DNA from: Escherichia coli
GTDB lineage: Bacteria > Pseudomonadota > Gammaproteobacteria > Enterobacterales > Enterobacteriaceae
Strand: one strand, 5' to 3'
DNA length: 64,000 nt
Assembly (NCBI RefSeq): GCF_041248615.1
Contig: NZ_CP158426.1
The position numbers were made by a program, and so were the translations under genes. Every line of letters starts with the position of its first letter. Position 1 is the first letter of the stretch. The notes beneath the pieces were generated by a model that saw only the letters and a program-made list of their open reading frames with translations, was not told the origin of the DNA and did not search any database. Below are positions 24,764-25,727 of this stretch, in pieces.

Positions 24764-25120
24764 TTAATTTGAACCAAACTTCGGATCGTTTCCGTAACGA
24801 TTGCTGCCAGAATTGCCTTCTAAACAGGCAAATACAAACAGAACTAACCAGCCAATGATCGGTACCAGATAGAGAAGCGCCCACGCACCTGAACGGTCAG
24901 TATCGTGCAGACGACGAACGCACAGAGCAATGACCGGAATGATTGTTGCTGCCAGGTAAATGAGAGAAAGGAATGGAAACTCTAAACCTAAAATCAATTG
25001 AATGACATTGATAATAGCGCCGACGATGGCGTTAATCAGAGTAAACATCCAGTACTCTTTACGACGTGCGCGACCAGAGAAACCAACATAATTTTTTAAT
25101 ACGGCTAAATACCACTGCAT
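24764..25120 (-). CDS. yhaI: DUF805 inner-membrane protein
   Basis: 118 aa ORF; paralogous to the adjacent yhaH (shared KNYVGF.GRARRKEYWMF and RRLHDTDRS motifs). Confidence 0.88.
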   Translation of the reverse strand: MQWYLAVLKNYVGFSGRARRKEYWMFTLINAIVGAIINVIQLILGLEFPFLSLIYLAATIIPVIALCVRRLHDTDRSGAWALLYLVPIIGWLVLFVFACLEGNSGSNRYGNDPKFGSN

Positions 25121-25317
25121 AAAAACATCCCTTTAATTAAAAGTGACGAAAGTCTATTCCGGGTATTGTGTAAATGCTATTCGTATCTTTCTTTTTCGGA
25201 TGTTATAAAGGTTTTGATATTTAAGATAAATATATGGTTATTTTTTATAGGTAATTTATATAACGACATTGAAATATTTTAAATAAACATTAGTAAATTA
25301 TTCATTCATCAACATGA

Positions 25318-25348
25318 TGATAAAAGCCGGATGAGTCAGACATCCGGC
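25318..25348 (-). terminator. Putative rho-independent terminator downstream of yhaH
   Basis: Stem gccggatg-agtcaga-catccggc with the T-run on the minus strand. Confidence 0.5.
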
Positions 25349-25361
25349 GAGCAGATTTGTT

Positions 25362-25727
25362 TTAAGGTTCCAGTTTTGGATCTGGTCCAAAGCGGTTTTC
25401 GCCTGGCGTACCCGCCTGGCAGTTAAAGACGATGATAATAAGCCAGCCGATAAACGGGATTAAGAATAGCAGTGCCCACCACGCCGAGCGGTCGGTGTCG
25501 TGCAGGCGGCGGAACTGAACCGCCCACCACGGTAAAAACACCAGAATACCGTAGATTGTCGTCAGGATGCCTTCGCCACCGGCGCGTTGCCAGCCTAACA
25601 TTTTATCCAGTAGCCCCAGCACGAACGTAAAGATGATGTTGACCAGAATAAACATCCAGTACTCTTTGCGCCGCGCACGACCCCGGAAACCGACATAATT
25701 TTTTAGTACTTTCAGATACCAGTCCAT
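25362..25727 (-). CDS. yhaH: DUF805 inner-membrane protein
   Basis: ORF track 25362..25748 trimmed to MDWYLKVLKNY... (121 aa). Confidence 0.88.
   Translation of the reverse strand: MDWYLKVLKNYVGFRGRARRKEYWMFILVNIIFTFVLGLLDKMLGWQRAGGEGILTTIYGILVFLPWWAVQFRRLHDTDRSAWWALLFLIPFIGWLIIIVFNCQAGTPGENRFGPDPKLEP

Follow-up and report, generated by a model that had tools for sequence, protein, structure and literature searches.

The genes yhaH (b3103) and yhaI (b3104) of Escherichia coli K-12 are both annotated as encoding a "putative inner membrane protein", and as a pair they are already known. Here we describe their counterparts in a 64,000-nt stretch of E. coli DNA, the window, to which all coordinates refer. 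Both genes are on the minus strand. YhaI (24764..25120, RefSeq WP_001198780.1) has 118 residues, and YhaH (25362..25727) has 121 residues from an ATG start. An alternative TTG start at nt 25748 would give a YhaH of 128 residues, and RefSeq, which names this gene yhaH, does not adopt it. The locus is collinear with the K-12 order yqjF-yqjG-yhaH-yhaI-yhaJ-yhaK, in reversed orientation. YhaH is 100% identical between K-12 and the window, and the spacer and terminators are nearly identical. The window differs in harboring the other allele of yhaI, with 56 nucleotide and 18 amino acid differences; we refer to the two as the W (window) and K (K-12) alleles. The segment 24600-26050 is 100% identical to several complete E. 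coli chromosomes, in which it is annotated as yhaJ, a DUF805 gene, yhaH and yqjG. The new point is that yhaI lies on a 652-bp segment that is missing from about one fifth of E. coli strains and exists in two very different versions.

Both proteins match the Pfam DUF805 profile (PF05656) end to end, spanning profile positions 1-110/111, and nothing sets them apart from the family. The scores are 109.2 bits for YhaI (E 2e-31) and 120.9 bits for YhaH (E 4.5e-35), with a cut-off of 25.7 bits. The literature that mentions DUF805 gives no function for it. The initial annotation had described two adjacent, same-strand DUF805 paralogues from motifs common to both. The list of open reading frames has both genes at the above coordinates, and the quoted motifs are found in both proteins. 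A pairwise alignment, proposed there as a check, gives 63/118 identities (53%) between YhaI and YhaH with an E of 2e-44 in BLASTP, and the observation as described there is confirmed throughout.

The yhaH gene of Salmonella (STM3234) is an orthologue with 84% identity, and its promoter −10 element and leader are conserved with those of the window. Its mRNA is repressed by the small RNA (sRNA) SdsR as a validated target, the reporter fusion begins at −43, and the Salmonella YhaH protein increases toward stationary phase (PMC5137417). This SdsR control was shown in Salmonella. The Salmonella-like locus differs in having no yhaI, with yhaH adjoining yhaJ through a different terminator. The pair of Citrobacter rodentium resembles that of the window: it is in tandem beside yhaJ, its spacer is likewise AT-rich (223 bp, 30% GC), and yhaI is followed by a terminator of similar make-up, GGGGC...GCCCC. 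However, C. rodentium YhaI is about 61% identical, with the synonymous distance (dS) saturated, the yhaH terminator is another one, and IS66 is found on the yqjG side. An inner-membrane protein termed YhaI is also the target of a loop-mediated isothermal amplification assay for Klebsiella pneumoniae, one primer of which encodes a DUF805-type RRMHDIG motif (PMC8864245). That assay is species-specific and does not amplify E. coli; its target is a different paralogue with the name alone in common.

Distribution and alleles of yhaI

Alignment with E. coli ATCC 25922 delimits a segment of 652 bp (24715..25366, minus strand), which we call the yhaI cassette. It reaches from the final 5 nt of yhaH, in codon 121 and the stop, across the yhaH terminator and the spacer to yhaI and its own terminator. 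In yhaI-less E. coli, 40 bp with a single hairpin, AAGCACCTTGTAAAAGGTGCTT, stand in its place; this version gives YhaH an altered C terminus (LEQD), and the hairpin has a 12-bp stem with a folding energy of −16.4 kcal/mol. The yhaI-less junction is present in 992 of 5,426 complete E. coli genomes (18%), including Nissle 1917 and an avian pathogenic E. coli (APEC) strain of type O1:K1:H7, and the single-gene locus is found in ATCC 25922 and UM146 too. These strains belong to phylogroup B2. A near-identical 40-bp junction hairpin is located between yhaH and yhaJ in E. marmotae and Escherichia sp. E2562. In Salmonella-like and Klebsiella-like loci a lone yhaH adjoins yhaJ with other hairpins. The tandem pair thus has no counterpart in these four groups of loci or in the 18% of E. 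coli.

Because the 40-bp junction is common to E. marmotae and Escherichia sp. E2562, parsimony suggests that it is probably the ancestral Escherichia state and that the cassette was gained later via its conserved flanks. A later gain fits the base composition, yhaI having 43% GC and a third-position GC content (GC3) of 42%, versus 52% GC and a GC3 of 62% for yhaH.

The two alleles of yhaI differ in a mosaic manner. Of the 56 substitutions between the window and K-12, 54 lie inside a patch of 173 bp (24813..24985, minus strand), covering codons 46-103 with loop 1, transmembrane helix (TM) 2, the RRLHD loop and TM3. Within the patch the W and K alleles are 69% identical (31% divergent); outside it, identity is 99-100% in yhaI, the spacer and both terminators alike. 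The patch has a saturated dS of 1.7 and a nonsynonymous distance (dN) of 0.21, with dN/dS of 0.12; the rest of yhaI has a dS of 0.026 and a dN of 0.007. The dS of yhaJ in the window is 0.06 to K-12, 0.45 to E. marmotae and 1.33 to C. rodentium. By these values the divergence of the patch is at the level between genera, yet the patch is under purifying selection.

The W allele was counted in 2,291 genomes and the K allele in 2,081, and their distribution is sharply bimodal. Among 4,367 genomes, 2,288 match the window allele at 95% identity or more, 2,077 are of the K-12 type at 60-80% identity, and two fall between; the patch region is aligned at a coverage of at least 80% in 4,361 genomes. A few chimeric YhaI proteins (P0004, P0006 and P0007) and occasional frameshifted or insertion sequence (IS)-disrupted variants are found. 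The Prokaryotic Genome Annotation Pipeline (PGAP) gives the name yhaI to the K-12-type allele only.

Where the patch came from was sought in several places. Gene conversion from yhaH was rejected, the patch having 49-54% nucleotide identity to yhaH, and so was a third intragenomic copy as the donor, sensitive blastn finding one place per genome. None of the sampled YhaI-like genes is close to the patch (57-65%). The simplest reading is that there was one cassette, and that in one lineage a short tract of a distant yhaI, from outside the sample, took the place of TM2-TM3. Such a tract would end on one side in the conserved N-terminal block and on the other in the C-terminal one.

The locus is therefore found in three states among complete E. 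coli genomes: yhaI absent (18%), W allele (42%) and K allele (38%). It may be imagined that selection maintains this polymorphism, for example through phages that use DUF805 proteins for genome entry, the imported TM2-TM3 segment being an escape variant and not a neutral event. The likeness is to the need of phages PhiWec188 and PhiWec190 for YhaH, described below; we regard this reading as speculative and rather improbable.

No close match to the cassette was found in phages or plasmids as possible vectors, phage homologues being at most 52% identical. The "plasmid" matches of 100% were chromosome-sized or chromosome-like records. As separate observations, the Stx (Shiga toxin)-converting Shigella phages 75/02 Stx (NC_029120.1, 16349-16693) and POCJ13 (NC_025434.1, 16337-16681) carry an unannotated DUF805 homologue with 40% identity to YhaI (tblastn E 2e-14). 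In strain TBU0218_10-1CC (locus L004, NZ_AP027716.1, 4164-4861) IS1 is found in place of both yhaH and yhaI, and other strains have ISApl1/IS1A and IS5 insertions at the locus.

Transcription of yhaH and yhaI

The initial annotation assigned a terminator hairpin to each gene, and a terminator scan found a GC-rich hairpin followed by a U tract 3′ of each stop codon. The predicted yhaH terminator (25326..25348, minus strand) consists of GCCGGATG...CATCCGGC followed by UUUUAU, with a folding energy of −15 kcal/mol (z −4.4), and lies 14 nt past the yhaH stop codon. That of yhaI (24736..24753, minus strand), between the convergent yhaI and yhaJ, consists of GGGGCGATATTTCGCCCC followed by UUUUUA, with −16 kcal/mol (z −4.1). 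For both, none of 200 shuffled sequences folds as stably. A hairpin homologous to the yhaI terminator is also present 3′ of C. rodentium yhaI.

A promoter and 5′ untranslated region (5′UTR) for yhaH were predicted at 25728..25803 (minus strand) by a hexamer scan. The −35 element TTTACT (25803..25798) is separated by 17 bp from the −10 element TATTCT (25780..25775), which is within the sigmaS-like sequence TCTATTCTTAA (25782..25772). Transcription would start around nt 25770, in agreement with the −43 end of the Salmonella reporter fusion, and would proceed into a conserved leader, CTTTAAAAACAAGTGATTGA..TTGAGG. The promoter elements and leader are conserved in seven enterobacterial loci, from Escherichia, Salmonella-like, Klebsiella-like and Citrobacter genomes. 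In promoters of the sigmaS type the −10 element carries a C at −13 and is extended by TAA, with the consensus TCTATACTTAA; TCTATTCTTAA fits this consensus at 10 of 11 positions. Such promoters also show RpoS-dependent expression, and here the reported observation is the stationary-phase increase of Salmonella YhaH.

The two genes are separated by a spacer of exactly 241 bp (25121..25361) with 28% GC, as the initial annotation had it. The spacer contains the yhaH terminator and the presumed promoter or regulatory region of yhaI. No Rfam family was found in it at E values up to 1, and an sRNA or riboswitch there was rejected on this ground.

Expression of the two genes has been reported to differ. 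Under Ler, yhaI is up 36-fold and yhaH is not listed (PMC3891560). Overproduction of CpxR in K-12 raised yhaI 3.2-fold in an array and 40.3-fold in quantitative PCR (Q-PCR), yhaH 1.9-fold and yhaJ 2.0-fold (PMC2731931). Separate transcription of yhaH and yhaI, as proposed from the sequence at the outset, is well supported by the strong predicted terminator of either gene, by the conservation of the yhaH promoter and 5′UTR, and by the differential regulation in the published data.

Ler acts as an antagonist of H-NS. Since the spacer is extremely AT-rich and Ler activates yhaI, silencing of the H-NS type is most likely the default state of yhaI, a gene that combines AT-richness with a patchy distribution. 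For CpxR, a pattern search gave a candidate site at 25283..25297 (plus strand), ATAAACATTAGTAAA, with one mismatch to GTAAA-N5-GTAAA and some 165 bp 5′ of the start codon of yhaI. The site is suggestive only, as 13 such one-mismatch sites were observed in the window versus 4 expected, and CpxR boxes are poor predictors according to PMC2731931 itself. Two overlapping one-mismatch matches to the same pattern are located at 23718-23742, in the divergent yhaK-yhaJ intergenic region.

On the other side of yhaH, the yqjG-yhaH intergenic region (25830-25960) contains palindromic units of the repetitive extragenic palindromic (REP)/bacterial interspersed mosaic element (BIME) type, with the motif GGCGTTCACGCCGCATCCG occurring four times in the window (22795, 25935, 42634 and 51167). 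This region differs from that of K-12 by a 10-bp indel and clustered substitutions, and the y-ome paper describes yhaH as "surrounded by repeat sites". A sub-threshold match to Rfam isrD at 25966-26010 (plus strand; 24 bits with a gathering score of 37, E 0.04) overlaps the hairpin that directly follows the stop codon of yqjG; most likely a terminator was matched here by chance.

Origin of the pair and of the cassette

Homologues of YhaH with 73-86% identity are assigned by name to Salmonella, Klebsiella, Citrobacter, Enterobacter, Buttiauxella and others, and yhaH is a core gene of Enterobacteriaceae. The name YhaI is limited to E. coli and Shigella. The closest relatives of YhaI outside E. 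coli are proteins of 119 residues with 61-68% identity, all encoded between yqjG and yhaJ. The yhaI-like gene follows yhaH in tandem in C. rodentium, stands alone without yhaH in Intestinirhabdus alba, and is third in an array of three DUF805 genes in Superficieibacter electus. By these layouts the yqjG-yhaJ interval is an array of DUF805 genes that varies in content, and the pair is older than E. coli. The contexts were obtained from a protein search and contig look-ups; a contig scan with 8-residue YhaI seeds returned distant phyla only (45-57%) and no Escherichia.

In a neighbor-joining tree, YhaH forms a clade with 100% bootstrap and the YhaI-like proteins form one with 68%, and the two are sisters with a bootstrap of only 30%. 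The mean identity of YhaI is 53% to homologues from Firmicutes and Actinobacteria and 55% to YhaH. With a bootstrap of 30%, it is chiefly the position of the genes that speaks for tandem duplication. The ancient duplication claimed by the initial annotation is thus plausible: the paralogy is real and old, given the 53% identity and the tandem arrangement also in C. rodentium and S. electus, yet the sister grouping is poorly resolved. It had been deduced from the spacer and the terminators, features which do not entail it. Within E. coli, yhaI has the character of an AT-rich, mosaic accessory element and not of a long-fixed gene, so that its history there is more than plain vertical descent.

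The explanation we favor, and consider fairly probable, is that the locus holds two separately transcribed DUF805 paralogues, with yhaH as a core gene and yhaI as an accessory cassette that later acquired a mosaic allele. Its anatomy, homology, distribution and mosaicism come from the present analysis, and regulation and phage dependence from the literature; we infer silencing by H-NS, a gain and not a loss of the cassette, and the biochemical role. The yhaH gene would be the conserved copy, with a promoter of the sigmaS-type −10, a leader that is an SdsR target in Salmonella, and an intrinsic terminator of its own. The accessory yhaI would bring its own regulatory region and terminator on the AT-rich cassette, would normally be poorly expressed through H-NS-type silencing, and would be turned on by Ler or activated CpxR. 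The duplication would be older than E. coli because the tandem pair is also in Citrobacter and Superficieibacter. Non-B2 E. coli probably acquired the cassette, or acquired it anew, by homologous recombination through the conserved yhaH and yhaJ flanks, with displacement of the ancestral 40-bp yhaH/yhaJ terminator. Afterwards, the TM2-TM3 part of yhaI in one lineage would have been overwritten by the short tract from a very distant yhaI, resulting in the two present alleles.

Several points weigh against this explanation. The direction of the indel is a matter of parsimony from two outgroup Escherichia lineages, E. marmotae and Escherichia sp. E2562. No donor for the cassette or the patch was found among the sequences searched. 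The terminator, promoter and hexamer scans detected no good sigma-70 promoter for yhaI, giving only weak sigma-70-like matches in the spacer, and the CpxR-like box is a one-mismatch match within AT-rich DNA. The terminator and ribosome-binding region of the cassette have recognizable orthologues in C. rodentium, as would also be expected had yhaI been inherited vertically and then lost several times.

Such a vertical history would trace the tandem pair to an ancestor shared by Escherichia and Citrobacter and keep it in place, yhaI being deleted separately in yhaI-less E. coli, E. marmotae, Escherichia sp. E2562, Salmonella and Klebsiella. The yhaH-yhaI-yhaJ tandem of C. rodentium and S. electus, the homologous signals around yhaI and the bootstrap of the enterobacterial YhaI-like clade all speak for it. 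However, several independent clean losses are needed, and the short junction is no scar but a well-formed hairpin conserved among yhaI-less E. coli, E. marmotae and E2562. The low GC3 of E. coli yhaI relative to its neighbor yhaH also counts against this history. We hold this history to be possible but doubtful. A different view takes yhaI as a decaying or non-functional duplicate, its absence, two alleles and IS insertions resulting from relaxed selection. It draws on the 18% of genomes without yhaI, the frameshifted and IS-disrupted variants, and the faster evolution of yhaI, which has a dN to C. rodentium of 0.32, versus 0.07 for yhaH (dN/dS of 0.20 and 0.04, respectively). Nevertheless, dN/dS of yhaI is 0.12-0.20 despite saturated dS, the patch region aligns at the above coverage in the 4,361 genomes, both alleles keep all family-invariant residues, and the gene is strongly inducible by Ler and CpxR in the literature. 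Decay is very improbable.

It could also be argued that yhaH and yhaI form a single operon, in which the hairpin after yhaH is a mere attenuator and yhaI is expressed mainly by read-through. The genes are adjacent on the same strand, the spacer shows no convincing sigma-70 promoter, and "yhaH yhaI yhaJ" is given as a putative operon in a microarray paper (PMC2731931). That grouping takes in yhaJ, which is on the opposite strand, and is therefore no transcript map. The stable hairpin and U tract shortly after the yhaH stop, the unlike fold changes (40-fold vs 1.9-fold under CpxR, and yhaI only under Ler) and the lone yhaI-like gene of I. alba all stand against an operon, which we consider quite unlikely. 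The preferred explanation remains that of a core yhaH and an accessory, separately transcribed yhaI.

The DUF805 proteins and their significance

An alignment of 65 DUF805 sequences from multiple phyla has 16 invariant residues: Y11, F14, G16, R17, R20, E22, W24, F26, L28, P62, R70, H72, D73, N107, G110 and P113. Every one is kept in both paralogues and in both yhaI alleles. An AF2 model of YhaI (predicted local distance difference test score, pLDDT, 90; predicted template modeling score, pTM, 0.80) has a short N-terminal helix and TM helices at residues 20-44, 50-73 and 78-99, the third kinked at P87. The three helices and the GRxxRxEYW and RRLHD motifs of DUF805 are thus present in model and alignment. 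The PDB has no sequence relative, and NCBIfam gives only sub-threshold matches. Both proteins match PHROG 12855 ("membrane protein", moron category). Membership in a defense system was rejected, PADLOC giving no match.

YhaH is an inner-membrane protein, and a YhaH-GFP fusion is mislocalized without YidC (PMC3225971). For the three-helix protein, the charge distribution and the AF2 model of YhaI suggest an N-in, C-out topology. This conflicts with the use of YhaH-GFP, a C-terminal fusion, in a YidC screen limited to proteins whose C termini were known or predicted to be cytoplasmic (PMC3225971).

Some further features of the sequences were noted. The first 96 nt of yhaI (25025-25120) and of yhaH (25632-25727), spaced 607 bp apart, are 78% identical in DNA, with the proteins 53% identical overall; either a tightly constrained N-terminal motif or an earlier gene conversion could account for it. 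The YhaH representative of E. marmotae (P0131; locus L091, 2501-2860) has a short in-frame deletion removing QFR directly before the RLHD motif, and that of the Salmonella-like locus (P0138; locus L092, 2501-2857) is without three TM3 residues. Both are rare YhaH variants, the usual E. marmotae YhaH being 122 residues long. The yhaH dN/dS values for these two loci are invalid and were not used, since the internal deletions shift the codon register.

Loss of yhaH in a wild E. coli was reported to cause resistance to phages PhiWec188 and PhiWec190, and complementation restored sensitivity (bioRxiv 10.1101/2024.11.29.626071; PMC12695924). YhaH would thus be exploited by certain phages during infection. 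Because both proteins retain every family-invariant residue, the divergence of the paralogues would be regulatory rather than functional, and they most likely differ in the timing of their production rather than in activity. Our best guess, made with low confidence, is that YhaH and YhaI are biochemically equivalent small membrane scaffolds with a conserved charged face made of GRxxRxEYW and RRLHD. With similarly low confidence, yhaH may be the stationary-phase, SdsR-controlled copy and yhaI the one kept silent until Cpx or Ler induces it.

The three-state polymorphism of yhaI is the only mildly surprising element of the locus, and the finding is otherwise ordinary. It has a modest bearing on work that relies on yhaI to report Cpx or Ler activity or to serve as a marker in pan-genomes, as many strains of clinical importance, Nissle 1917 and ATCC 25922 among them, do not have the gene and automatic annotation names only one allele. 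The two alleles and the yhaI-less strains offer a natural variant set for work on DUF805 function. The locus is also a compact example of short-patch recombination between very divergent sequences. The picture of this little-characterized pair becomes cleaner: yhaH would be a conserved, sRNA-controlled core gene on which certain phages depend, and yhaI a regulatorily distinct, accessory and mosaic one.

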